From the NCBI GenBank assembly GCA_964016885.1, contig OZ024743.1:259780001-259844000 (forward strand): a stretch of DNA of 64,000 nt, written 5' to 3'. Below, one piece after another: positions 1 to 63,069 of this stretch. The notes under the pieces are model-generated. The model ran no database searches. It was given only the letters and a program-made list of their open reading frames with translations, and had not been told where the DNA came from. Source of the stretch: Eledone cirrhosa (Eukaryota). Position 1 is the first letter of the stretch. The number at the start of each line of letters is the position of its first letter. Position numbers and translations under genes: made by a program.

Positions 1-524
1 TTTGAGGGTGTGTGTGTGGGTGAGTTATATAGGTGATTACGTAAGAGGATGGTTGAAAAGTTGGTAAATTCCGAAAATGTTTAGTGGATTGGTTGTTGGT
101 CAATTTCTGCGTGTGGGTATTCCATGAAGCGATGGTCGGAAGAGGAGAGATGTGGGGTGCGCGCGCAACAGGAAGTGGTCAGCAGTGGGAGTGCTGTGGT
201 CTGTTTGTGCTGGGAGGTGGTCAGAGGGCATATCAGCAGTCGGTGGAATGGTAAAGGGGCGAGGATGGGTTGTGTGAAAGTTGGAGTGAGGAGGGTGTGT
301 GTGTGTGTATTAGTAGGGGTGTTAGTGGGATGAGTGAGTGTGGAGCGAGGGTGTGGGTGGAGCGGGGAGAGAAGGATGTGTGTGGTTCTATGGAGGGAGT
401 GTGGTGTACTGGTGTGTGTGTAGTTTGATGAAGAGGTGTTAGTGGGTGTTAGTATACGGAAGGTGGGGAGGGGTTGAATGCAGGTGTGAGTGGGGGTTAG
501 TGGTGGTAGGGTGTGTAGAGTTGG

Positions 525-544
525 TATATATATATATATATCTA

Positions 545-605
<61 letters not shown>

Positions 606-609
606 ATAT

Positions 610-659
<50 letters not shown>
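525..659. repeat. (TA)n microsatellite, one of many such tracts (e.g. 17755-17865, 33165-33235, 36803-36875, 42013-42095, 51450-51640, 52450-52568)
   Basis: Direct dinucleotide repeat; source of the spurious YIYI ORFs. Confidence 0.98.
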
Positions 660-663
<4 letters not shown>

Positions 664-974
664 AATGGCGTCTGCGTGATTGCACATGGGTTACATATGA
701 ATAAAATTAGTTCTTCATCAGTGATCTTCCAGCCTTCATTGGTATTTCTTCGCTTTAAAGATCATATACCTCTGGTTGGTTCGAGCAATAACTAAAGGAA
801 GTTATTGGGACACGTAAAATGGAGTGAAGCGAGTGAGACATGCAAACAAATAAAGATGGTAATGGAACGGAAAGATAGGAAGAGAAACAAGTCCGTGATA
901 TCTGTGAACTTAAGTTATATATATAATACACACACATATATATTAAATATGTAATAATAATGTTATCAATAATA

Positions 975-1140
975 ATAATTGTTTATATTTTAGGCACAAG
1001 GCCAGCAATTACTCCAGTGCATTACTGGACTTTATTTTATCGACCTCGTAAGGATGAAAGGCAAAGTTAGCCTCAGTGAGATTTGAACTCAGACCGTAAA
1101 TGGACGTAATTCTATGTTGCAAAGCATGGCGTCCGACCCT
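975..1140 (-). mobile_element. tRNA-derived SINE, family A (octopus-type), 5'-truncated
   Basis: Reverse complement contains B-box-like GAGTTCAAATC and the body CTTTGCCTTTCATCCTTACG.GGTCGATAAAATAAAGT shared with more than 10 copies in the window; ends in (ATT)n. Confidence 0.88.
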
Positions 1141-1194
1141 ATGATGATGATGATAATAATAATAATAATAATAACTATAATAATAATAAAAAAA

Positions 1195-3200
1195 ATAGAC
1201 CTATCACATGTCTGTCCGTAATGTGGAAACTGTTGACAAGCATTATGTCTGAGGAAATCTACCATCACCTCCACATAAACAACTTGTTACCGGACGAACA
1301 GAAAGGATGCCGAAAGAAGTCCCGTGGTACAAAGGACCAGTTACTTATTGATAAGATGGCAATGAGGAATTGCAAGAAAGAGGAGACACACTGGTCTTGA
1401 CATGGGATGGATAGACTACAAAAAGGCATTTGACATGGTGCCCCATTCTTGGATCACCAAAAGCCTAGAGATCTTCAAGGTGGCAGATAATATCAGACAG
1501 TTGTTGGGCAAAAGTATGAAGTCCTGGAAAACAGTGTTAACATCAGTTGGAGAATCCTTGGAAGGCGTGACGATCAAGAGAGTTATCTTCCAGGGAGATA
1601 GTCTGTCCCCTCTGTTGTTTGTCCTTGCCCTGATGCCCCTGACCATGATACTGCGAAAAGTGAGAGCAGGATACAAGTTGGGAAAGGGAGAGCTTACCAT
1701 CAATCACCTCCTCTTCATGGACGATCTTAAGCTCTTCGGGAAGAGTGAGGAGGAGTTGAATGTGCTTGTTGACACTGTCCGTATTTTCAGCAATGATATA
1801 TGTATGCAATTTGGTATTAGTAAGTGTGGAGTCCTTGTGATGAAGAGGGGATAAATTGAGCAGAAGCAACGGAATCCAGGTACCAACAGGTGAGATGATA
1901 AAGGAAATTGACACTGAAGAAGGATACAAGTATTTGGGTGTTCTGGAGGCTGATGACATCAAGAACAAAAAAATGAAGGAATTTAATAGATTCGGAGAGT
2001 AAGGAGCGTATTAAAGTCACATCTGAACAGTAGGAATGCCATAAGAGCAGTAAATTCCCGAGCTGTGTCTATTATTAGGTACAGTGTGGGAATTCTGAGA
2101 TGGAATGTTGCTGAACAAAAAGAAATGGATAGGAAGACTAGGAAGCTATTGACTATCTACAACATGTTCCACAAGAGGAGTGATGAGATAGACTCTACTT
2201 AAGGAGATCTGAAGGTGGAAGAGGTCTTATCAGCATAGAGGACTGTGTTCAGATGGAGAAAAACAACCACAAATACGTGACTGATAGTAAGGAGCCAATG
2301 CTCAGAATTGTACTGAAGGAGAGAACAATAGACCAGGGGATGTCCAAGGAGGAAATAACAACAAGGAGAAAGAGCAGCCTTCATGAAAAATCCCTTCATA
2401 GTACCTTCTTTGAGAAAACTGAATTCAGAGATCCACAGACATGGAACTGGTTGAAAAGAGGAGATCTTAAAAAGGCTACAGATGGAATGCTAATGGCTGC
2501 GCAAGAGCAGGCCCTCAAAACGAAGTGGCTGAAACACAATATGTACAAGGAGGAGGCTAGCCCACTGTGCAGGATCTGTGGAGAGAGACAGGAGACTGTG
2601 GCTCACATTGTATCCGAGTGTAAACACCTAGCCCAGACTCACTATAAGGGCTGGAGACATGATGTGATGGGCAGGGTGATCCACTGGCACCTATGCAAAG
2701 TAAACAATTTACCACATTCTGAGAAGTGGTATGAGCGTAAGCCAGAGTCGGTGATAGAAAACGATCAGGTGAAGGTGCTTTGGGATTTTAGGATACAGAC
2801 GGACAAGAAACAGACCTGGTGGTTTTGGACAAGGAAAAAAGATCGTGCCTGATTGTGGATGTGGCCTGCCCATTCGACACGAGAGTGAAAGAGAAGTAGA
2901 GGGAGAAAATTAACCGATACCAGGACTTAAAGTGGGAGGTAAAAAGGATTTGGAACTGCCATGAAGTCAAAGTGGTCCCGATTGTCATAGGCGCACTAGG
3001 TACTATCTCAAAAGGTTTCCAGGGATGGTTAAAGAAAATTGGCCCCGCCACGCTTTTTGGAACACTTCAAAAGGCATGCTTGCTGGGAAAAGCAAGAGCC
3101 CTCTGATACGTCCTGAATATCTGAGGCTGCAGGTAGTGGCTTGATATTCATTTCAACAAAATTTCCAGTTAACTAACATCAATGACTGGGACTCAAAGAA
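1195..3200 (+). mobile_element. R4/Dong-type non-LTR retrotransposon (RT, CCHC knuckle, restriction-like endonuclease), 5'-truncated and frameshifted
   Basis: RPITCL, IDYKKAFDMVPHSWI, QGDSLSPLLF and HLLFMDDLKL (RT); CRICGERQETVAHIVSEC (CCHC); WDFRIQTD..DLVV..DVACPFD..KINRYQDLK (RLE). Flanked on both sides by (AAT)n, the known target type of Dong elements. Confidence 0.9.
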
Positions 3201-10695: not shown

Positions 10696-11697
10696 TCTAA
10701 TACTGTGTATGCCTTCTTTCATTATGTTTGGTTTGTTTATGCCTCTATCACTATGTTTGGTTTGTTGTGTTTGCATTTTATTGGGGGATTTGGCTGGAAC
10801 ATTCCACATTGCTGTAACGTTTTTGTTTATTGTCGGGGCTATCCTTTCTACGGACTGCATCGTATAGTGTTTTGGACACATAATGCCTTATACGTAGTTA
10901 GTACTGTATTAACATCATAAACGTATGTGTGTATGAATTCTGTCTGTGTTGATTTTGTTGTTGCTGTTGTTCTTTTTGTTTAAGCCTAGGTCATCTCTAC
11001 TCGAGCAATCCTATGAATCAAATATTTGCCAGAGTCAACAATTATACATATACGGAAGGGTGGGTTTCATAAAGATTTGCTTGCTATTTATAACAGATCA
11101 AATGACCACGTACAATAGAATTTACCCCATTTGCTTTGGTGTTTAGCATATTGCAGGCCTCGGTAGTAGCACGACAGTTTCTCTTCAACGCTTGTTTCCT
11201 GTAACATGTGGCCATATATGGCGTTTAGGTCTATTGAAATTATTTATTAAGATGCAGCTGCCTTACCTTGTATAGTATTCTTATGTTTGTCAGAAATGAG
11301 TGGGAGAAACAGTGTGTAGGAATTGAATGTATGCTTGGTTGTTTCCTCTCGATATGTTGTGAAATATTTGTGGTGAGAATATTGTTATGTAAATTTCTAG
11401 TGTATTTGTCTTCTGTGTGTGTGCATGTGTGTATATTCGTGTGTGTGTGTGTATTTATGTGTACATGTGTGTGTACGTGCGTGTTTGTGCATTCTGTTTA
11501 GTGAGGTGCTTGATAATGTTTGGTTTATTATACTTTTCTGGTATGAACATGGATTTTGTCTCTACTACTTCAGTCAATTTCTTTGGAAACAGAATTTAAG
11601 TAACTGGTGTAGTCAGGACTGGCGCTACGATTAAGGCCAATTAGGGAGTCACTAAAAGCGAACACTTCAGTGAGGCGCATTACTGAACATTAAATGA

Positions 11698-11886
11698 GCG
11701 GTGGATTGGCAGTATCGGTAGAGGGTCGGATGCCATGCTTTGAAGCATAGAGTTACCTCCCTGTATGATTTGAGTTCAAATCTCGTCGAGGTTAACTTTG
11801 CCTTTCATCCTTCCGGGGTCGATAGAATGAAGTACCAGTAATGCACTGGGTAATTGCTGGCCTTGTGCCAAAAGTAGAAACAATTA
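11698..11886 (+). mobile_element. SINE family A, full length
   Basis: GCGGTGGATTGGCAGTATCGGTAG head, GAGTTCAAATC B-box, tail GGCCTTGTGCCAAAAGTAGAAACAATT. Confidence 0.9.
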
Positions 11887-12134
11887 AATTATCATAGTTT
11901 TATGCATATCTGTATAATTAACTTAAATATATAATAATTTCCTGTTATCAATACATAAATCGTTTAAAGCCTTTGCCGCGTAGCAGCGTTGTGAAAATAT
12001 TCGAAGCAGTGAAGAGGAGCGTATAATGTTATGACTGGTCACATGATTTAGTATGGGTGAGAAGGGGAGAATGAAATGTATTATGAGGAGGAGACGCACA
12101 TTGTAAAGTTAGTCTAAAATCTCTAAAGTCTCTC

Positions 12135-14805: not shown

Positions 14806-15328
14806 AGCAGTGGAGCTGGCGCGATGGTGTCGTTGCGGCAGGTACGATGATGCTGGCTCGGTGTTGCTGGCGAGGTCATGTTAGCGCGGTCATAGTCGGC
14901 CGGCGTCGTTCTGTAAATCAGCAAACAACTGCAAAGCGTTCGTGTCAACTAACGAATACAGCGCCTTCTTTGCAAAACACTGCCCTCGATTCGGACGCGA
15001 CTACGCACCGAACTTAAGCAAATCGGTAGATGGAGGGAAAGAAACAAATCGGGATTTACTTAGTAAGGGCGAATGAACCTGGAGCAGCTCAACGCTGAAT
15101 CTCGTCGTCTGCGAACAGATCACCGTGATTTGTGGCGCAAGAGTTGTATACAGTCGTTCGTTTTTCCCAGCTAGATTCGGAGTCTCATTGATCAGAGATG
15201 TCCAAAATATTTGACAACGGCTCCGGTTTGAGAAAATCTTTTTTTCCTCCGGTGAATCACGAAGATCATGGACAAAGTCTTCGATCTCGTATTCCCACAC
15301 CTTAGAGACAAAACATTTTAAAAATAAT

Positions 15329-15513
15329 TGTTTCTACTTTTGGCACAAGGCCAGCAATTATCCCAGTGTATTACTGATACTTTATTTTATCGACCCCGTA
15401 AGGATGAAAGGCAAAGTTAACCTCGGCGGGATTTGAACTTAGACCATAAAGGGCCGTAACTCTTTGCTGCAAAGCATGGCGTCCGACCCTCTAGCGATAC
15501 TGCCAATCCACCA
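15329..15513 (-). mobile_element. SINE family A with 11-bp target-site duplication
   Basis: TTAAAAATAAT at 15318-15328 and 15514-15524 flanks a full SINE. Confidence 0.92.
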
Positions 15514-20275: not shown

Positions 20276-20283
20276 GACTGGCA

Positions 20284-20470
20284 GCGGTGGATTGGCAGTA
20301 TCAGTAGAGGGTCGGACGCCATGCTTTCCAACATAGTTACGTCCCTTTACGATCTGAGTTCAAATCCCGCGGAGGTTGACTTTGCCTTTCATCCTTACGG
20401 GGTCGATAAAATAAAGTACCAGTAATGCACTGGGTAATTGCTGGCCTTGTGCCTAAAGTAGAAACAATTA
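20284..20470 (+). mobile_element. SINE family A inside (ATT)n
   Basis: Full consensus match; (ATT)n on both sides. Confidence 0.92.
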
Positions 20471-20689
20471 TTATTATTATTATTATTATTAAAGATTCAT
20501 TAGAGCGCCGGAGAAAATATTTTCAGTCATTTAACTGCATCACTTGATATGCTGAGTACAAATCCTTCAGATGTTAACATTGTGATTCATCCTTCTACAG
20601 CTGATAAAATAATGTACTGGTCAAATATTGGGATTGATTCTATAAGCTTTGCTCTTCACCTAAATTGCTGATCTCGAGCCTAGAGTAGA

Positions 20690-32414: not shown

Positions 32415-33160
32415 ATGAAAGAAAACACTTTTTTCGCTCTACATGGCTGAATACAATAAATGTATTCTGAGTTTTTCGAATATTAATAATTGTTTCTACT
32501 TAAGGCACAAGGACAGCAATGCCCAGTACATTACTGATACTTTATTTTATCGACCCCGTAAGGATGAAAGGCAAAGTCAACCTCGGCGGGATTAGAACTC
32601 AGATCGTAAAGGGACGTAACTATGCTGGAAAGCATGGCGTCCGACACTCTACCGATACTGCCAATCCACTCGAATATTAATAACATTCGATTCGTTTGCA
32701 ATTATGCAAACAAGCCTCAATTTTATAGCCATGTCAGTAGAATAAACCCTTCATTCTTTCTCTTGTGTTGGCATGTGAACAGAATTGCAGACACTAATGA
32801 TTCTGTGTATCACCGTACATCAGTACAGCTCATTGTTCAACTGCCAAACTATCAGAGCTAGTGAAAACATATGCTAGTTTCAAAAATACACAGTGACTGA
32901 TTGGCCTGATTTGCATATTAGCAGACTGACAGTTTGCCAGGTGAATAGTGAGCTGTACTAATGAAGTGTGATACCCAGAAACATTAGTTTCTGCAATTCT
33001 GTTCACATGTCAACACAAGAGAAAGAATGAAGGGTTCATTCTACTTACATGGCTATAAAATTGAGGCTTGTTTGCATAATTGCAAACGAATCGAAGGTTA
33101 TTATTAATATTCGTTAAACTCATTTATTGTATTCAGCCATGTAGAGCGAAAAAAGTTTTC

Positions 33161-36883: not shown

Positions 36884-37044
36884 AATTGGTGCTCTGAAAT
36901 AGCGATATATATATGAATGTATATATAGTGTATTTTGCAATACACTGTATGCTTAATTAAAAGCATTTTGAAGACCTTACGCTATTGTTTTAGAGTAGTG
37001 ACAGTTTCACTTACTTTAAATTTTCAGCAAACAGGGGGAGATAA

Positions 37045-37089
37045 AGCTGACAGAGCTCTGTTTCGTACTATTTGGTACTTATCAAAGCT
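37045..37089 (-). ncRNA. Type I hammerhead ribozyme, U3-A8 core
   Basis: Minus strand AGCT-TTGATAA-GTAC caaata GTAC-GAAA-CAGAGCTCTG-TC-AGCT; stem I extends past an internal loop (CAGGTGGAG / CTCCCCCTG). Confidence 0.88.
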
Positions 37090-37318
37090 AAGTACTCCAC
37101 CTGCCTGCTGAAAATCATGAATGTTTGATTCTTATAGAATTCTAGTAATAATCAGGAACTGATTATACATTCATATATATATCGCTATTTCAGAGCACCA
37201 ATTCTAATTTTCAATTTCTGCATGACCGGCAACCGCTCTATATAATCAGTTCCTCATTATTACTAGAATTCTATAAGAATCAAACATTCATGATTTTCAG
37301 CAGACAGGTGGAGTACTT

Positions 37319-37363
37319 AGCTTTGATAAGTACCAAATAGTATGAAACAGAGCTCTGTCAGCT
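37319..37363 (+). ncRNA. Type I hammerhead ribozyme, U3-A8 core (other arm)
   Basis: AGCT-TTGATAA-GTAC caaata GTAT-GAAA-CAGAGCTCTG-TC-AGCT; GUC cleavage after 37359. Confidence 0.85.
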
Positions 37364-37476
37364 TTATCTCCCCCTGTTTGCTGAAAATTTAAAGTAAGTG
37401 AGACTGTCACTACTCTAAAATAATAGCCTAAGGTCTTCAAATGCTTTTAATTAAGCATACAGTGTATTGCAAAATA

Positions 37477-37545
<69 letters not shown>

Positions 37546-37556
37546 TAACAGATTAA

Positions 37557-37607
37557 AGTTTAAGCAAAGAATCGCTGCTTTCACCCTTAACGGGATCTTC
37601 TGAAACT
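37557..37607 (-). ncRNA. Hammerhead-like motif with CAGAAGA core; 72-bp solo insertion from the 3' end of the 46.5-48.8 kb Penelope family
   Basis: Minus strand AGTTT-CAGAAGA-tCCC gttaa GGGt-GAAA-GCAG cgattct TTGC-TT-AAACT; matches 46518-46593. Confidence 0.65.
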
Positions 37608-37624
37608 AACAATATATATATATA

Positions 37625-37944
37625 TGTGTGTTTTGCATTGTTTTTTTATATGAAATCATGTGTCGAAACAGATATTGTTATACTTGAGGAAGGTCATATT
37701 GTTGTAATAATATTGCCAGAAATAATAACAGAACACACTCACTATTTGGTTGGTTTTCGCTTCTGTATCACCATAGGTAATTTATTTGGCAATCAACTTT
37801 TATCATTTATTGACCAACGGTTAAAAATACAGATATAAATATATATATATATAGTCTATCAAAGTTGTTTCGTTGCTCATCAGCAACTATCATGTTCCCT
37901 CCTATTGTATTGTATTGCATTGTAATGTCTACGCCATTTTTATT

Positions 37945-37987
<43 letters not shown>

Positions 37988-40801
37988 TTCTTGTCTCCGT
38001 CTCAGCGCATGCGTTTGCATGTGTGTATAATGTTTGGTGCGTGTGTTCGCGTTTGAGTGTATGTGTTTTGGTTTTTGCATTCTATCTTTGTTTACTAGTG
38101 TGTGTTTATATGTGTTTGTTGTTATTGTACTTGTGTATATATTTATTTATTTATGTTTCCCTTAAGTCAGTATTGTTTGTTTGAGTATGGGTGTTGTTGT
38201 TATTCCATTCGTTTTTTTTCTGTTTAACTTTGGTTTTCTAAGCTCCATTTCACCTGCTTCTCTGATTTGCTTACCTTTAGAGTCATTTCTATGTTTAGAT
38301 ATTATTTTAATTTCTATGTTGCTATATTACCGTTATGTCTTTGTCTGGCGTGTTCGTATAGTACTGGACCGTTTTTTTTTTGTCCTTTTAATTCCCCCCA
38401 CAGTATTGGTCTATTCTTTCTCCTATACTTCGAGCTGTCTCAACTATGTATGTCGTTGTCATGTTTCTGCACATACCCTCTGTACATCTTATGCTATAGA
38501 CTACATTTCTAGTTTTATAGTTTATTTGGGGGTACACTTTACATATTACACATTTCTTATCAGTACAGTGGATTTTCTTAAAGGGGTATGTTTTGCTGAT
38601 CAGGGATTTTATGGTAGTTCCTGGATTTTCTACCACTTTAATCTTTAAGTGGGTCTTTCTTAGGGCCTTTCTACATTGGTTAGCTAATTTCCCCCACAGG
38701 GGTAGCATCCACGAACATGACACTCTGGTGTCTTTGGTTGTCGTGCCCTGAAGTGGCTTTTCCTATCTTATGTTTAGTCCTATCTAAGCTATTCCATGAT
38801 TTGCTCCTGTATAATGGGAAAATTCCTTTCGTGTCCATTTCTATGAGGGTCTTATACTTCTCCGTGGCTCCTTCGTATACTCTGATTCTGTCTCTTTGGT
38901 TGTAGCCAGAGAACTGCATGAAGTGTTGGCTGTGTCTTTCCATTTCATTTGAGTCGCACATGTGGGACACGTTCTTCATCACTCGTACCAAGTCTGCGAT
39001 CAGAATATTAAACTTAGCACTACTGGACATTGCTGAGCTTTTGAGTATCAGGTATTTGGAGGCCATGGGTTTAGCATAGTGTGAGTGGAGAATTTGGGCC
39101 CTCTCGTCTATCGTGTTAATCCAGAGTTCCGTGTCTAATACTGATAGTCTATTGTTAGGGAGCTTGGAAGGGTAGTCAACAGTTACGGTTATACTCTGGT
39201 GTAATGAGTTAGCTAGCTATCTGCTGGGTGCTTTCCATTGTGCTATTTTCTAAATCATGTTCATTAGTACTCTCTTGTGGGGGTGTTCTTATTACTATAT
39301 TAATATCGTCTACGTAACGAGAGTACATGACGAGGTCTATGGAGCTCTCTTCGAGGAGTTCTTTGAGTCTCCTATCCCACCATACCATAAATAGATTGAC
39401 AACATCACCAGCTATGCTGACGCAAATAGCTGCTCTCTCATTCTGAGCGTAGATCTTTTCGTTAAATTTAAACATATGGTCTTTTAGTTTTGTTTTAACA
39501 CTAGCCCATATTGCATGTGCGACCATTTTCTCACCTGATCATTGTTTTGGGGTGTCTGTATGGCTTTGGTCCATCCATTCCATCTTCCCATGGGAGTCTT
39601 TTTATCCATTAAGGTTATGGCGGGTCTACCTCTTCTGGGTCTACTGGGGCAGAAACAGCTAAGGTCGTGGTCATCTAGGTATTCGGTGTCATAAGTAAGT
39701 CTAAGTAGGAGGCCCAGTTCATCTGTCTCAACGTCGCAGAACTCCACTTCGCTCTCACTGATTATTTCCACACATTTTTCCACAGCAAAATCAATGTTAA
39801 TGGATGGGTACAGTGATCCATACAGCCTATTATGCAGTTAGTTAAGTTTTTTTGTTTTTGTTGCACGCATTGATTCCGCTGAGAAGGTCCTCTTCACTGT
39901 CACATATATAATTCTCCACTCACACTATGCTAAACCCATGACCTCCAAATAACTGATACTCAAAAGCTCAGCAATGTACAGAGGGTATGTGTAGAAACAT
40001 GACAACGGCATACATAGTTGAGACAGCTCGGAACATAGGAGAAAGAATAGACCAATACCGGGGGGAATTAAAAGTACAAGAAAAAACGGTTCAGTAGTAT
40101 ACGAACACGCCATACAAAGACATAACGGTAATATAGACAACATAGAAATTAAAATAATATCTAAACATAGAAATGACTCTACAGGTAGGCAAATCAGAGA
40201 AGCAGGTGAAATAGAGCTTAGAAGACCAAAGTTAAACAGAACAAAACGAATGGAATAACAACAACAACCATACCCAAACAAACAATACTGACTTAAGGAA
40301 AACATAAATAAATAAATAAATATATACACAAGTACAATAACAGCAAACACATATAAACACACACTAGTAAACAAAGATAGAATGCATAAACCAAAACACA
40401 TACACTCAAACGCGAACACACACACACACACCAAACATTATACACACATGCAAACGCATGCACAGAGACGGAGACAAGAAGAAATAAATAAATAAATAGA
40501 ATAAAAATGGCGTAGACATTACAATACAATACAATACAATACAATAGGAGGGAGCATAATAATAGTACCACTGATGATGTTGCCGATGTGCAACGGAAGA
40601 ACTTTTATAGACTATATATATATATATATATACTTATATCTGTATTTTTAACCGTTGGTCAATCAATGATAAACGTTGATTGCCAAATAAATTAACTATG
40701 GAACTATAAAAGATACAAAAGCAAAAACCAACCAAACAGTGAGTGTGTTCTGTTATTTTTTCTGGCAATATTATTACAACAATATGACCCTCCCCATGTA
40801 T

Positions 40802-40809
<8 letters not shown>
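37625..40809 (-). mobile_element. Penelope-like element 1: 5'-truncated RT-GIY-YIG copy with an inverted copy of its 3' region
   Basis: Coding part 38390-39820; 39975-40809 is the reverse complement of 37672-38487; bounded by (TA)n; decayed HHR-like motifs at 37851-37890 (-) and 40562-40615 (+). Confidence 0.9.
38388..39820 (-). pseudogene. Penelope-like RT + GIY-YIG endonuclease, frameshifted
   Basis: GSLYPSI, MYSRYVDDINI, HYAKPMASKYLI, CTDKKCVIC and NVVYSIRC..YIVETARSIGERI. Confidence 0.9.
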
Positions 40810-40834
<25 letters not shown>

Positions 40835-40839
<5 letters not shown>

Positions 40840-42013
40840 CAATAACAGAGATAGTTTAAAGCTAATCTCTGACTGGTAACCATCTCACTCAACAAACATT
40901 AGGTTGTATTTTAATATAAACCCAATTTAAGTGTTTGGGGTGCTAACAATATGTATTATGTGGAAAAGCCAGTTGCATTATTTTATGAGATATAATTAAA
41001 GTTAAAATATATCTCTCTTTCCAAACAATTGTTTCATTATAAGTTTTCTACAAATTCGGAGAATATTTCCAGTTTATGTAGAAGCCTAATATACATTCAT
41101 GTAAGAATATATTTAGGTGGGCACTTATAAATCATCAGTGGAAGCCCATTAAACTTTGATATAAGAAAAACATTTCTTACCATAGTTAAAAATCGTGTCT
41201 GTTAATTTGCTCCCTCCCGCATCGAATGACCGGCAAATTTGAAATTCCAGCAGTTTTTGACTGAGGAAGTATTGTAGCGTCACTAAGCTGGAAGGGGAGA
41301 CAACCAAGATCCACGAAAGGAGGAAAAAAAAATAATATACACGCGGGTTAATTAGTTTTTTCGAAAACATTATTAATCTAACGTGTTAAGAACTCAATTG
41401 AAATTAAATAAATAAATATATGCGTGTATAAATTACACACGCATATAGATATTTTATTAGGCTAAAATCAGAGGTTGTACCTGAATAAGAAACCGCATCT
41501 CGTAACCGTAGTAAATACGGAAAGTTATGGTTTAAAGGGCAAATGGGAATGTAAATCTCCGGCCGAATTAAGAGTAAAATATAAAACACACGCAGGTTAA
41601 TTAGTTATTTCAAAACTAATATCAATTCCTCGTGTAAAGAACTCAATTAATTTTAAAAAATAAATGTATGCATGTAATTATATACATAGACATATATATA
41701 TTTTCCTAGGCTAAAAAACAGAGAAGTTACAACCAATAAAAACCACAATATCGCACAACAGTAATAAATACGGAAGGTCAAATTTATAAGGTACCTGGAA
41801 ATAAACACCTCTGGCCAATCAAGAGTAAAATATTAATACAATAACAGAGATAGTTTAAAGCTAATCTCTGACTGGTAACCATCTCACTCAACAAACATTA
41901 GGTTGTATTTTAATATAAACCCAATTTAAGTGTTTGGGGTGCTAACAATATGTATTATGTGGAAAAGCCAGTTGCATTATTTTATGAGATATAATTAAAG
42001 TTAAAATATATCT
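40835..42013 (-). mobile_element. Non-coding HHR element with apparently identical 180-bp direct terminal repeats (999-bp period), in (TA)n
   Basis: 40835-41014 equals 41834-42013 by eye; diverged internal duplication of about 250 bp (41330-41585 / 41580-41835); no credible ORF. Confidence 0.88.
41019..41143 (-). ncRNA. Type I hammerhead ribozyme with long stem II
   Basis: Minus strand TTCCA-CTGATGA-tTTATAAGT..ACTTATAAt-GAAA-CAATTG-TT-TGGAA; GUU cleavage between 41024 and 41023. Confidence 0.82.
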
Positions 42014-42024
42014 ATATATATATA

Positions 42025-42097
<73 letters not shown>

Positions 42098-45546: not shown

Positions 45547-46289
45547 AATATCCGTCATCAGTGGTCTACTAGCCATCATAGGTATTTCTTCGCATTACAG
45601 ACCATATACCTCAAGCTAGGGCGATACAATAACTAAATTAAGTTATTGGGATAAAAAGAGTTGGCTGGAGAAAGAGAGACAGATAAACAGACACGAATGA
45701 TGAGGCAACGTGAAGAGAGGAAAACATGAGAAAATCAAGTCAATAATTCATTTTGAACATAAGAACTTGCAAACATTGACGAGAAGGCAAATATACATTT
45801 TGGCCGTACGGATATGAGCGAAGAAAGAATCTCGTACGGTGTGGGACGATGGAGGAAGTGAGAGAGAGGGTGAGTAGCAGAGAGTGAGTGAGTGAAAGTG
45901 TGAGGAAGTAGCTAGTCGAGAGAGGGTGACTAGCAGAGCGGGTGAGTGAAAGTAAGAGGGAGAAGGAGAGAGAAGGGGGAGATAGAAAGAGGATAGCGGT
46001 AAGGGAAGAGAAAAAGACAGGTCACAGCGAAGGGGAAAGCATATATGAATGAAAAATGGCGAGCTGTGTTGTTGCAAATAGAAAATGAATTATTGACTTG
46101 ATTTTCTCATTTCTTCCTCTCTTTACGTTGCCTCACCATTCGTGTTTGTTTACCTGTCTCGCTTTCTCCACCCAACTCTTTTTATCCCAATAACTTAATT
46201 TAGTTATTGTATCGCCCTAGCTTGAGGTATATGGTCTGTAATGCGAAGAAATACCTATGATGGCTAGTAGACCACTGATGACGGATATT
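45547..46289. repeat. Inverted-repeat element (arms 45547-45754 and 46082-46289, GA-rich spacer); diverged relatives at about 710-900 and 53455-53600
   Basis: About 208-bp arms are reverse complements; both end just past a CTGATGA; flanked by TA-rich microsatellites. Confidence 0.85.
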
Positions 46290-46345: not shown

Positions 46346-46426
<81 letters not shown>

Positions 46427-46514
46427 ATAATAATAAATTTGAAGACTAAAATCCAAAGAGGGGTCGATAAGGATAAATATATATCAAATATATAAGAACC
46501 GTAGAGCAAATATT

Positions 46515-48820
46515 TATTAAAATAACAGATTAAAGTGTAAGCAAAGAATCGCTGCTTTCACCCACCCTTAACGGGATCTTCTGAAACTAACAAAGTCAAT
46601 CTGTAAACGCAGAACTGGATATTTCAAAAAACGTTGCAACCGGAGGAAGACAGCAAGACGATACTTTGGTTCGTGGAAACGTTCGCTGGCAAAGAACGGG
46701 AAAAAACGAATAATACGTCATTAATAGGAGCGTCATTAAACAATTACACGCAAAGACAGAACCACGTTTATGGTATAAAAGAGGTCGTAGACTAATGTTG
46801 TCTTAGGTGGTGCATAGAGACGTTCTCTGGCAATGAACGAAAAAACGAAGAAAATACGTCATATGTGGAGCGTGGAGAACAATAGCACGCAAAGACAAAA
46901 CCACGTAAATGGTATATAAATACGTATATAACAAGCGCACACACATACCTACATATAAATACACGAATGTTCGGAGACGTAAGTCAACTAAAACAAGAAG
47001 TACACATATACACACACCCACCATACGTACGAACCTGCATACTCACACAGACGCAAAACTCCCGTATACACATAGCCAAACCCTATGTACCAGAATATAT
47101 AAAATTATACGCCATAGCAATCAAATATACGTACGAGAATTTATACGTACCTTCACAAAACATACGGGTAATATATACTTACCAATGCAAATAAGTAAAG
47201 GAATAAACAAAACATATACTTAGCTCCCACATCAAGACGTAAAATATCCACGTATAGATCGTACTATCCGTTAGGGTATAATGTGGGGCTGTAATACAGG
47301 AAAGTTTTGTGCAATTTATGTTTACAAGCCGAAATTGCCTCAGATTTTTTGTTTAGGATGTGGTCTGTGGCGTAGAGTATTTCCAGGGCCTCAGCGGCGC
47401 AGAGGTCACATGGTCTTTTATTTCCGTTATACGATCTAGCCCTGGCTAGGATCTCCCAGTGTAACTTATATTGGGTGCGGTTGTCTTTTAGACTCCAGAT
47501 ATAAGCTGAAAGTGACGTCATATTCCTTCTTAGAGGGTAACGAAAAGAATGGGTATGCATGTAAACACGCTGCTTGAAACTATTGGCAGTTAACCCTATG
47601 TAGGCCCTATGGGACGTGGGTGTTACAACCTTACATTTGTAGACAATGTTACTAGAGAGGCATTTCCCGGATAGGGGGCAATCAGCCCGATTCCTACAAT
47701 TACAGTTAGTACTAACTACAGGGTTGCACGTGTTCCTACGGCTAGGTAGTTTAGCTAAATTTGAAGCTGTGATGTTATGTGCAAGGTTAGGAGTCGTAGA
47801 GTAAGAAATTTTAATAGTATTTCTATTAAAAATGTTACTATATTTATGTGTAGGGGAAAATGCTTCGTAATAAGGGAAAGAAAGATCTTAGCTAAGGGTG
47901 TGGCCACCTCCATATTATATGGTGGGTTATACCAACAAATCCGACGGGATCTATTTCTTCTAGGTCTATTTTCGTACTCTGTATATGCTACCTTATCGAC
48001 AAATCCACTTCGAGCAAGAGCTTCATTGTAATAATTGGAATGGTCGTTGAAAATACGCTCGTTGGTGGAAAGACGGGAAAGCCTCAACGAAACGTTTCTT
48101 ACCAGGTTCTTGGTTATGCTGGCAGGATGGTTAGAATGCTTACTTATGTAATTAAGCGTATCATTCGGCTTTCTATACGGGTAATACAACCCATTCAATA
48201 AATTGAGGGTAACGTCGAGGTAATTAACGACCGAGAGATTGGCCTCAACCTGTATAGAGAGGTTGAAGCCTTTAAAGAAGGCTGTGAGTTCTTTTCTGAA
48301 CCTGTCGCAAGCACGAGGTCCGCACTTAGTCATGGTCAAAAGACCATCGTCACGGTACAAACCACCGCCCGCGTTGGGGAATTCGTCCTTGATAGAGAAA
48401 AGAAGGAAAAGGCCAATAAGATCAGTAACCTCCGCAGAGTCACTGGCGCCCATATTCATGTCGAATGGGGTACTATTGGATTTTTTAATCCAAATAGAGT
48501 CGTCGAAATTAATCACCGACTTTCGGGCATTGAGGATGACATCAACTTCGAAATCCTTAACCACTGTGAGTGTTTTAGCGAAATTGATAGCTCTAAGGAG
48601 AAGTGGTAAAGTGATGGAGGAGTAGTAATTGTTGATGTCGAATTGGATAAAACGGCAATGTTCCTTGTTACATATGCCGTTGAACCAATCAATCACCGCG
48701 AAAGAATTGTTCCACAGTGCAAGAGGGGCCAAACTTCTAATTTCAGGTATAATTCTATCAAGAATCGTTTTACTAAGTCTACCTAAATCGGACTTCGTAG
48801 GGTTAATAATGCTATAATCG

Positions 48821-48822
<2 letters not shown>
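46515..48822 (-). mobile_element. Penelope-like element 2 (Nematis-like), 5'-truncated, with a long 3' UTR ending in an HHR-like motif at 46525-46604
   Basis: RT-GIY-YIG ORF plus about 750-bp 3' UTR with a 140-bp-period duplication; HHR-like motif in the same orientation as the ORF. Clade label is from recalled motifs only. Confidence 0.9.
47264..48822 (-). pseudogene. Penelope-like RT + GIY-YIG endonuclease, one frameshift near 47855
   Basis: INPTKSDLG, FIQFDINNYYSSI, MGASDSAEV, GLYRDDGL, YRKPND..SNHP, CNCRNRADCP..NIVYKCKV..AYIGLTANSFKQR and CDLCAAE..LNKKSE. Confidence 0.93.
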
Positions 48823-49345
<523 letters not shown>

Positions 49346-52075: not shown

Positions 52076-52445
52076 TTATAGTTGAAAATTGCAAACTTGA
52101 CTGTCACCACACATTGTGAATCTGAAGATTGCCAAAGCATGAAAGTACTTGTTCAATTAACACTTAGCATTTAATATTCTACCATACTATTACATTCTAA
52201 TACCATTATAAATTTTAAAGGATTGTAAATAAAACGAGTAAATAAGACAAAGTTGGAATTCCTTTTATTAATATAATCTTCTATACACAATCATACACAC
52301 CCGTGTATATTTATCTATCTATCTATATATATATATATATTTATATATACATATACATACATATATGCATACATGCATATGTTATTCACCGATTAATGGT
52401 GAAATATATTTCTTTAATGGAATATATACAAAGGAGATTAATCAT

Positions 52446-54660: not shown

Positions 54661-55347
54661 CCCATGAATATGGTATAAAACAAATAACCCAGTTGCCACG
54701 CAGTGAGATGAAACTCTACACCTCATGGTTGCGAAGTGAACCTTCTAATTATTTGACCAGGTTGTCACCACAAAACTTAACAAATACAGCAAAGTATTGT
54801 TGTCCGACGCTATAACAGTACTGCCAATAAACCGCCTATGTTTATAGATACATTGTAATGTTTAGAGAATAATTTTATCCGAAAAATGAAACATAATAGA
54901 TGAATAAATAAATAAGACGAGAAGTTGACCTTGTGTTACACGCAAAATCTATTAGAATACGAGTCATCAACGTAATTTTCTCGTGGTTACGAACATAATT
55001 TCCGACACAGCCATTATTGCCTTCAGCTATTGTTGACAACAACAACAGCGATGATATCATCTAATACGTGCCGTCGTCATTATTGTCGTAATATCATCTA
55101 CTTCTCACTATCATCACTGTCACCGTGATATCATCTGCTCATCGCCATCATCATCATCGTCATCATCATCACCAGCCTCGTAATGTCTTCTACTTCTAGC
55201 CATCATCAGCATCGTAATATAATTTACTCCTCGTCATCATCATCATTGTAATGTCATCTACTCATCACTATCATCATCGTCGTTGTAATATCTACACATC
55301 GTCATCATCATCGTAGTCATATGCATCACGTTGTATACATCAATAAT

Positions 55348-55533
55348 TGTTTCTACTTTTGGCAAAGGCCAGCAATTACCCAGTGCATTACTGGTACTTT
55401 ATCTTATCGACCCCGTAAGGATGAAAGGCAAAGTCAACCTCGGCGGGATTTAAACTCAGAATGGCAAGGGGCGTAACTATGCTGGAAAGCATGGCGGCGT
55501 CTGACCCTTTACCGATACTGCCAATCCACCGCC
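55348..55533 (-). mobile_element. SINE family A with imperfect target-site duplication and a tandem expansion at its 5' junction
   Basis: CGTTGTATACA.CAATAAT at 55329-55347 and 55602-55620. Confidence 0.9.
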
Positions 55534-55764
55534 CTTCATACACCGTTGTATACACCGTTGTATACACCCTGTATACACCGTTGTATACACCCTGTATACA
55601 CCGTTGTATACACCAATAATAAAGAGAAATAAATGGGTAAACCAACAAACAAACAAACAAAAGATACTGTCACCTCTGAGTTGCTAACATCAGCCACTGC
55701 CACCACTACTGATAGAGTCTCAATCAGCTCCACTTTAACAAAACACTACCTCTATCAATATCCT

Positions 55765-62352: not shown

Positions 62353-63069
62353 ATTATTTTCTCATCCTTCCGGGATGGGCGGTGGATTGGCAGTATCGGT
62401 AGAGGGTCAGACACCATGCTTTCCAGCATAGTTACGTCCCTTTACGATCTGAGTTCAAATCCCGCCGAGGTTGACTTTGCCTTTCATCCTTACGAGGTCG
62501 ATAAAATAAAGTACCAGTAATGCACTGGAATAATTGATGGCCTTGTGCCAAAAGTAGAAACAATTATTTTCTCATCCTTCCGGTGAATTGGCAGTATCGG
62601 TAGAGGGTTGGATGCCATGCTTTGATGCATAGAGTTACGGCCCTTGCCATTCTGAGTTCAAATCCCGCCGAGGTTAACTTTGCCTTTCATCCTTACGGGG
62701 TCGATAAAATAAAGTACCAGTAATGCACTGGGTAATTGCTGGCCTTGTGCCAAAAGTAGAAACAATTATTTTCTCATCCTTCCGGTGTCGATAGAATAAA
62801 GTACCAGTAATGCATTGGGTAATTGCTGGCCTTGTGCCAAAAGTAGAAACAATTATTTTCTCTTGTGGCGGTCGATTAGCAGTATCGGTAGAGGGTCGGA
62901 CGCCATGCTTTGACGCATAGAGTTACGGCCCTTGCAATTCTGAGTTCAAATCCCGTCGAGGTTAACTTTGCTTTTCATCCTTACGGGGTCGATAAAATAA
63001 ATTACCAGTAATACACTGGGTAATTGCTGGCCTTGTGCCAAAAGTAGAAACAATTATTTTCTCTTGTGG
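62353..63069 (+). mobile_element. Head-to-tail array of four SINE family A copies with nested target-site duplications
   Basis: SINEs at 62377-62562, 62581-62764, 62773-62851 (partial) and 62867-63052; ATTATTTTCTC at 62353, 62563, 62765, 62852 and 63053. Confidence 0.92.

Follow-up and report, generated by a model that had tools for sequence, protein, structure and literature searches.

A non-coding hammerhead element of Eledone cirrhosa with Penelope-type insertions and its fusions to a second family at predicted ribozyme cut sites

At three loci of the Eledone cirrhosa genome a complete unit of a non-coding element (family A), opened exactly at the predicted cut site of its own hammerhead ribozyme, is joined to the predicted hammerhead cut site of an unrelated, autonomous Penelope-like element (PLE), family B. 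These fusions are likely a germ-line record of ribozyme cutting and of the joining of its products. Our preferred reading, to which we assign a probability of roughly 0.6, is that A is a non-coding hammerhead parasite of PLEs, its RNA being cut in vivo, its ends rejoined, and the product copied into (TA)n by an RT-endonuclease helper. The helper would start at one fixed internal site of A RNA, a Penelope-type RT start 189 nt downstream of the cut and targeted to (TA)n, on a template that A's own predicted hammerhead would have cut in vivo and whose cut ends would have been rejoined. The copy described here, in the 64,000-nt stretch of DNA that was analysed (the window; Table 1), would be one 1.18-unit product of such copying.

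Table 1. Features of family A, its flanks and associated Penelope-like elements (window coordinates)
Feature	Position	Strand	Remarks
(TA)n target, left flank	40807..40834	.	
Family A full unit, 999 nt, non-coding	40835..41833	-	RNA sense = minus strand; genomic copies 93-98% identical
Post-cut tail, 189 nt, up to the fixed end	40835..41023	-	inferred RT initiation site 40835; fixed end and TA flank in 78/80 sampled loci
Minimal type I hammerhead, predicted	41017..41144	-	predicted cut 41024|41023
Hammerhead stem I, 5 bp	41143-41139/41023-41019	-	
Hammerhead CUGAUGA box	41138-41132	-	
Hammerhead stem II, 7 bp	41130-41124/41043-41037	-	closes a branched ~80-nt loop
Palindromic stem III	41035-41024	-	GAAAC-AAUU-GUU
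Internal ~250-nt duplication	41327..41836 (41327-41585 / 41576-41836)	-	74%; absent from older ~745-nt-unit subfamilies
Hairpin/palindrome, AT-rich, within the unit	41410..41454	.	self-inverted match
Unit-junction motif around the RT start, resembling the H1 3' end	41822..41892	-	local score 43 vs shuffle mean 26.3; 1/2000 shuffles
Partial second unit, 180 nt, = 40835-41014	41834..42013	-	variable 5'-truncated insertion end; same two rare alleles as unit 1
(TA)n target, right flank	42014..42097	.	no target-site duplication discernible
Hydra-type PLE, family H1, 5'-truncated, frameshifted; candidate helper	46424..48825	-	RT, CxCX5C linker, C-terminal EN, ~1-kb 3' UTR, 90-nt tail
Family B (autonomous PLE) stub, carrying a predicted minimal hammerhead of its own	52080..52315	+	core from 52122, predicted cut 52150|52151; B is the fusion partner elsewhere

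The terminal repeats of the window copy, which an earlier note on this DNA had called identical over 180 bp, agree at all 180 positions (40835-41014 = 41834-42013, 180/180 nt) at an offset of 999, giving a 999-nt unit. Numbering the unit from 40835 as position 1 places the predicted cut between unit positions 190 and 189. The absence of an ORF, also stated in that note, is borne out: the longest stop-free frame is 78 aa in a scan that included the unit junction, and tblastn with six PLE peptides from the same genome found no protein remnant in the unit below E 0.27. The unit has no LTR, PBS or PPT, the terminal repeat being a variable partial unit; GC content is 0.31 over window positions 40001-42000, and the unit folds better than 20/20 shuffles (z -5.7). 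Any target-site duplication would be masked by the (TA)n flanks.

The TA tract into which the window copy is inserted borders a decayed PLE (37672-40809) with an RT fragment (38680-39216, minus strand) and an inverted copy of its own 3' region (39910-40809), and a 71-nt stub of the H1 3' end lies in a TA tract at 37541-37611. Large inverted-repeat elements flanked by TA or simple repeats occur at 36928-37479, 45552-46284 and 32671-33113, the 200-bp arms of the first two being 96-97% identical. The window also carries an abundant SINE-like repeat of ~190 nt (85-94% identical; 989-1148, 11694-11895, 15319-15512, 20283-20480, 32482-32669, 55339-55537 and 62353-63069), tandem near 62.4-63.1 kb.

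Across the 3.0-Gb assembly the unit occurs in many copies. The left-end 35-mer has 413 exact matches and the exact tandem junction 132, which sets aside the possibility raised in the earlier note that the repeat is an assembly duplication, while the 3' half of the hammerhead has 2,271 motif matches that include older subfamilies. The latter, sampled at 25 loci from the hammerhead matches, are 77-90% identical, some with a ~745-nt unit without the internal duplication. For insertion ends we took as unbiased the first 100 of the 413 left-end hits, drawn from contig C1 and a portion of C2 and corresponding to 80 loci. By script, 78/80 of them have their left end fixed at position 1 beside TA, and the other end varies from 36 nt to ~3 units, 26 of 83 ends lying beyond one unit. 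Among these 26 multi-unit copies 13 carry two full hammerheads and the remainder, like the window copy, one. Two dispersed inserts (L153, L154) reach 3.2-3.4 units, inverted 5' forms occur at L051, L108 and L269, and an array on contig C13 (G000:C13:23,778,400-23,804,100; L151, L152, L271) holds ~25 A units and hammerheads at a mean pairwise divergence of 2.0%, with a recurring 548-to-34 deletion whose periodicity suggests later unequal crossover. In 80 end, 25 hammerhead-selected and 55 junction loci, out of ~2,000 copies, none extends into an RT and GIY-YIG ORF, so that in these samples A does not look like the plain pseudo-LTR tandem of a coding element that the earlier note had considered as a refutation. 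A fixed point of RT initiation together with 5' truncation, partial tandems and some inverted copies is the pattern known from PLEs (PMC8557442, PMC3846280), and by its testable features A is a non-autonomous Penelope-like element or animal non-LTR retrozyme. The young, non-coding hammerhead retroelement proposed in the earlier note is supported; both the fixed RT-start end in (TA)n and the cut-site chimeras at other loci had escaped that note.

The predicted minus-strand cleavage at 41024/41023 was reproduced as that of a minimal type I hammerhead. Folded in isolation the motif forms stems I and II, the hammerhead-constrained fold reaching -27.1 kcal/mol vs -29.4 kcal/mol unconstrained; a fold predicted for the complete circle lacks the hammerhead. 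An intermolecular duplex of the palindromic stem III is predicted at -8.2 kcal/mol, and the palindrome suggests dimeric cleavage of the kind proposed for PLE hammerheads in the available part of PMC4209133, which also describes GUU sites and minimal PLE hammerheads as weak in vitro. Rfam gave 0 matches at the gathering score and no hammerhead among 17 weak matches, plausibly owing to the branched ~80-nt loop II. Between 22 older-subfamily copies and the window unit the stems and GAAAC box diverge by 0-0.6% and the rest by 12-19%, a low hammerhead divergence that is partly imposed by the search pattern; not set by the pattern were stem II's 5' strand, at 0.6%, and the CUGANGA box, whose changes fall at N7. 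The exceptions in the same 22 copies are the core (5.8%, at N7) and the outer pair of stem I (11%). At L078 (U16.1 changed) and L090 (G12 changed) both hammerheads carry a predicted inactivating change; therefore either cutting is not obligatory or the units have been homogenised by gene conversion. The window holds more minimal hammerhead families with a palindromic stem III (18361, 50818 and 51301 on the plus strand; 18858/18896 on the minus strand), and the fetched loci hold at least 12 different stem III palindromes, that of A being common to several unrelated families.

The chimeras (L270/L183, L269 and L268) join unit positions 189..1,999..190 to the post-cut tail of B without added bases. 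Their junctions are at G000:C2:377,422,600-377,423,700, C2:399,521,400-399,522,600 and C4:146,105,500. The monomer in L183 begins at 190 and ends at 189, exactly cut to cut, and its 3' neighbour is a family B tail whose fusion point is the predicted B cut; pattern searches yielded the two further A-B loci. In L269 a fold-back marks the start of the monomer at 189. At L268 it lies within a full-length, frameshifted autonomous B (RVT_1, E 6e-7; GIY-YIG, E 1e-6) with both junctions on predicted cut sites, the order being B as far as its cut, then A running from 189 around to 190, then B onward from its cut, again with no bases added. We take the linker of this B to be Neptune-like from its CX4CxxC motif. 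The A-B junction is repeated in inverted copies at L268 and L269, and bases are added in none of the A-to-B junction sightings (clean in 5/5) nor in the one B-to-A junction. Before the cut A and B have only two U's in common, and with these 2 nt of homology the chance that a fusion hits both RNA cut sites is at most ~5e-5 per event. The three monomers are 90.5-96% identical to one another, each is nearer to ordinary copies than to the other two, and they occupy three places in the tree, which points to independent events, at least two and likely three as judged from this divergence.

Family B carries a mark of its own cut as well. Its 5' ends fall at the predicted cut in 38 cases, vs 5 at a control position lying 14 nt upstream (7 vs 1 when only TA-flanked ends are counted), the 38 being the ends and rearrangements among 57 matches sorted by eye with 30 loci inspected, beside 14 intact B copies with a mutated core and 5 A-B junctions. 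Copies of B folded back at or beside the predicted cut form palindromic stubs at L238, L239, L242, L249, L255 and L259; the palindrome beside the B cut may favour such fold-backs.

Searches for other partners used exact patterns that miss any partner with an 8-nt stem III segment, and the counts are lower bounds. Another hammerhead followed by the A post-cut tail gave 11 + 5 matches, with one fusion only (to B, L220 = the L268 locus); besides it there were variants of A, unrelated matches and a single TA-flanked end at 189, the 5 being judged from the matched letters only. The A pre-cut end followed by other sequence gave 6 + 9 matches, of which 4 junctions at 3 loci are with B, and the remainder are A deletions from the cut (L211, L233, L215), point variants or other families with the same palindrome. 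A hammerhead survey over all fetched loci revealed no further clear cross-family fusion. In the literature covered, main texts with few subscription papers among them, we found no description of cut-site chimeras.

It is very probable that both the A and the B hammerheads cleave in vivo, because no process acting on DNA could recognise an RNA cut site in two families simultaneously. Their joining likely proceeded by RNA ligation of cyclic-phosphate and 5'-OH ends; the rival, in which the RT jumps from template to template end to end, would be expected to leave the same junctions. Ligation is favoured because all junctions are clean and L268 is simplest as a two-member circle or as a monomer sealed into the B cut. 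If ligation did occur between molecules, self-circularisation of an A monomer is therefore likely. We infer such a monomer circle as the template, for which a read-through RNA may also have served. In reports available in part, RtcB circularises retrozyme monomers in vitro (PMC7229834), and RtcB-made U6/L1 chimeras retrotranspose (PMC6789731).

The variable insertion ends carry a further trace of the cut. Among 146 such ends from 142 loci (80 unbiased and 62 picked for a tandem junction), 13 lie at unit positions 179-191 vs 4 in the mirror window 192-204, a modest contrast (p 0.025). Positions 179-191 are the top 13-nt window without TA microhomology (mean 1.5 overall and 2.5 in TA-free windows at positions 37-400). 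Four ends lie exactly at 189 (L066, L183, L225, L274), and L269 is a perfect fold-back at the cut. Some templates therefore had their 5' end at the cut, while most RT runs pass through it: the cut site is traversed in ~90% of RT passes and 133/146 ends lie elsewhere, so cutting is partial or mostly resealed. The earlier proposal that self-cleavage defines the element start thus survives as an enrichment of ends just inside the cut and fails as a rule. The window copy, which starts 9 nt inside the cut, does fall in the 179-191 cluster, but TA microhomology with the flank leaves its actual end uncertain, from unit position 178 to 180, and alone it proves little. A second cluster of 9/146 ends lies at unit positions 630-642 (window 41464-41476), without strong TA microhomology and just past an internal hairpin; an RT stall or a transcription start is possible there. 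Deletions or jumps that start exactly at the hammerhead cut and resume further along A occur at L211, L233, L179 and L215, observations that have no control set.

Comparison of units within insertions bears on the template. In 64 multi-unit insertions units 1 and 2 differ at 387 of 23,439 sites (1.65%), vs 2.94% between insertions, and family-segregating sites account for 19/387 of the within-insertion differences vs 33% of those between insertions. Minor (lineage) alleles of unit 1 are found again in unit 2 in 123/145 cases, insertion-private alleles are present in both units in 37/176, and the window copy repeats both of its rare alleles in its second unit. These counts fit units of one insertion that come from one template sequence read more than once, and to that extent uphold the earlier note's view of a circular or read-through template. 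The doubled alleles would fit a circle, or an RT that jumped back to the molecule just copied; they may also reflect a young homogeneous tandem source or gene conversion. Of the 26 inserts that pass one unit only 2 pass a second (2/26), below the expectation for a memoryless circle (p 0.005), and in L020 and L154 the first unit is more unlike the other units than those are among themselves. Full small-RNA sequences adjoin variable A ends at L195 (1646-1833), L117 (2430-2501) and L186 (1979-2053), being U2 snRNA, tRNA-Asp and tRNA-Ala, respectively; they are likely template captures or neighbouring small-RNA retrocopies.

The likely helper of A is H1 or a sister family, because the two share a ~70-nt likeness, Hydra elements target (TA)n (PMC8557442) and the C13 array begins with the H1 3' end, followed by an inversion and then a switch into A. 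The match is short, confined to ~70 nt around the A start site with no longer match found, and pattern searches of the H1 3' UTRs and the L267 tandem revealed no canonical hammerhead. A near-complete H1 copy (L267) has a 698-aa frame with RWR, DKT and CNCRNRTDC (CxCX5C) motifs, and H1 bears the marks of the Hydra clade, namely a C-terminal EN, RWK-like and DKT motifs, the CxCX5C linker and (TA)n insertion (motifs compared with those given in PMC8557442). Pfam returned nothing significant for the window PLE peptides or H1. No autonomous parent of A was found, nor any autonomous element with more than ~70 nt in common with it, and family B was rejected as its regular helper, because its ends do not resemble those of A (score 21 against a shuffle mean of 21.8).

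Three other accounts must be weighed against cutting followed by rejoining. The most serious, although clearly a minority reading, is cleavage without ligation, in which the PLE RT jumps from the 5' end of a cut RNA to the next 3' end, on the same molecule or one of another family, producing copies of more than one unit and chimeras without circles. Such jumping accounts for the exact cut-site junctions, for run-off ends at 189 and 999+189, for the drop in survival after one round and for the unequal units in L020 and L154. Captured U2 and tRNA sequences at copy ends imply that template switching does occur, and the R2 RT is known to jump templates (PMC11194090). RT template jumps, however, often add untemplated nucleotides. 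None are present at the A-to-B (5/5) or single B-to-A junctions, L268 would require two precise jumps in succession, and read-through of ~90% at the cut would demand very efficient jumping.

We regard as unlikely, and less probable than jumping, that A is copied mostly from uncut linear transcripts of tandem sources or arrays, as a pseudo-LTR non-autonomous PLE in which occasional cuts give rise to chimeras as rare by-products without a role in spread. L078 and L090, where neither unit has a hammerhead predicted to be active, favour such read-through, long arrays are available as its sources, and the presence of two full hammerheads in half of the multi-unit copies counts towards it; like units could also stem from young homogeneous sources or gene conversion. 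In the Anolis PLE PAc cleavage is dispensable for insertion in vitro, and the accessible part of that study reports no RNA reads ending at the cut (PMC11167929). Against this, the core and stems are near-invariant across subfamilies 77-90% identical, including the half outside the search pattern, private alleles of an insertion are doubled in both units, and the chimeras demand in vivo cutting even if read-through prevails. That tandem duplication, recombination or mis-assembly of DNA made both the 1.18 unit and the chimeras, with an inert hammerhead, is very improbable. The genome is repeat-rich, the periodic deletions of the C13 array speak for later unequal crossover, and among the contigs and reads listed for four public runs none bridges the L183 junction, the runs being from other samples and uninformative; yet hundreds of dispersed A copies share one fixed end, and the fusions sit on both RNA cut sites at three unrelated loci and recur in inverted copies at two.

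Beyond the cutting and rejoining of A itself, a broader proposal, which we advance tentatively and at somewhat below even odds, is that passage through RNA circles, cut by hammerheads and ligated by the host, is routine for PLEs and for the non-coding elements that parasitise them. Because the elements have 5'-OH and cyclic-phosphate ends in common, the cut site would then act as a homology-free port for RNA recombination, at which whole elements are spliced into each other and then retrotransposed. The role of the minimal PLE hammerheads is an open question (PMC4209133, PMC8557442, PMC11167929), and if true this reading would answer what they are for and give parasites a route to swap helpers. 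The signature, a hammerhead whose stem I strands come from different families, is cheap to seek in any genome and testable across animals without RNA work. Family A moreover connects a unit of retrozyme type with the insertion marks of PLEs and with a candidate helper of the Hydra type. Without the chimeras, element A would be an ordinary addition to the known retrozymes and PLEs; they, not the window copy, are the new part.

The closest relatives of A among known systems are the animal non-LTR retrozymes (PMC7229834; Li, Clavereau and Pollet 2026, 10.64898/2026.07.22.740005), which in the accessible text likewise consist of non-coding tandem units of low GC, each with a type I hammerhead, occur as monomers, dimers and arrays, and have PLEs proposed as helpers; the 2026 preprint argues that retrozymes are non-autonomous PLE derivatives. 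A unit of ~1 kb, which the earlier note had thought unusually large, is not out of keeping with families of 51-972 bp (Li et al. 2026) or sizes of '150 to >1000 nt' (PMC7229834). The hammerhead of A differs in belonging to the minimal PLE type, its stem II region spanning ~96 nt, and A shows 5' truncation, a fixed RT start and a (TA)n target. In the portions available of the two retrozyme sources we found no fusions between families at cut sites, and circRNA expression has been demonstrated for animal retrozymes whereas A is known here from genome sequence alone.

The Chlamydomonas MRC1, a non-autonomous PLE, and the Hydra-clade PLEs (PMC8557442) resemble A in their pseudo-LTR partial tandems, head-to-tail multicopy inserts, a 3' end resembling that of an autonomous family, 5' truncation and inverted 5' copies, with (TA)n targeting by Hydra. 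A differs in lacking an ORF, in a unit closed on itself with one fixed junction and in a helper likeness of only ~70 nt, while the canonical hammerhead reported for Hydra was not found in H1. PAc, a Poseidon PLE (Frangieh et al. 2024, PMC11167929), similarly has a fixed internal RT start downstream of its hammerhead and an AT-rich target; what is accessible of that report gives no sign of in vivo cleavage, whereas here genomic ends and fusions lie at the cut. Finally, the RtcB-made U6/LINE-1 chimeras (Moldovan et al. 2019, PMC6789731) also record a retrotransposed junction between a 2',3'-cyclic-phosphate end and another RNA, but in the A-B fusions the ends on either side would be made by ribozymes belonging to two mobile elements, one of which sits complete in the cut site of the other.
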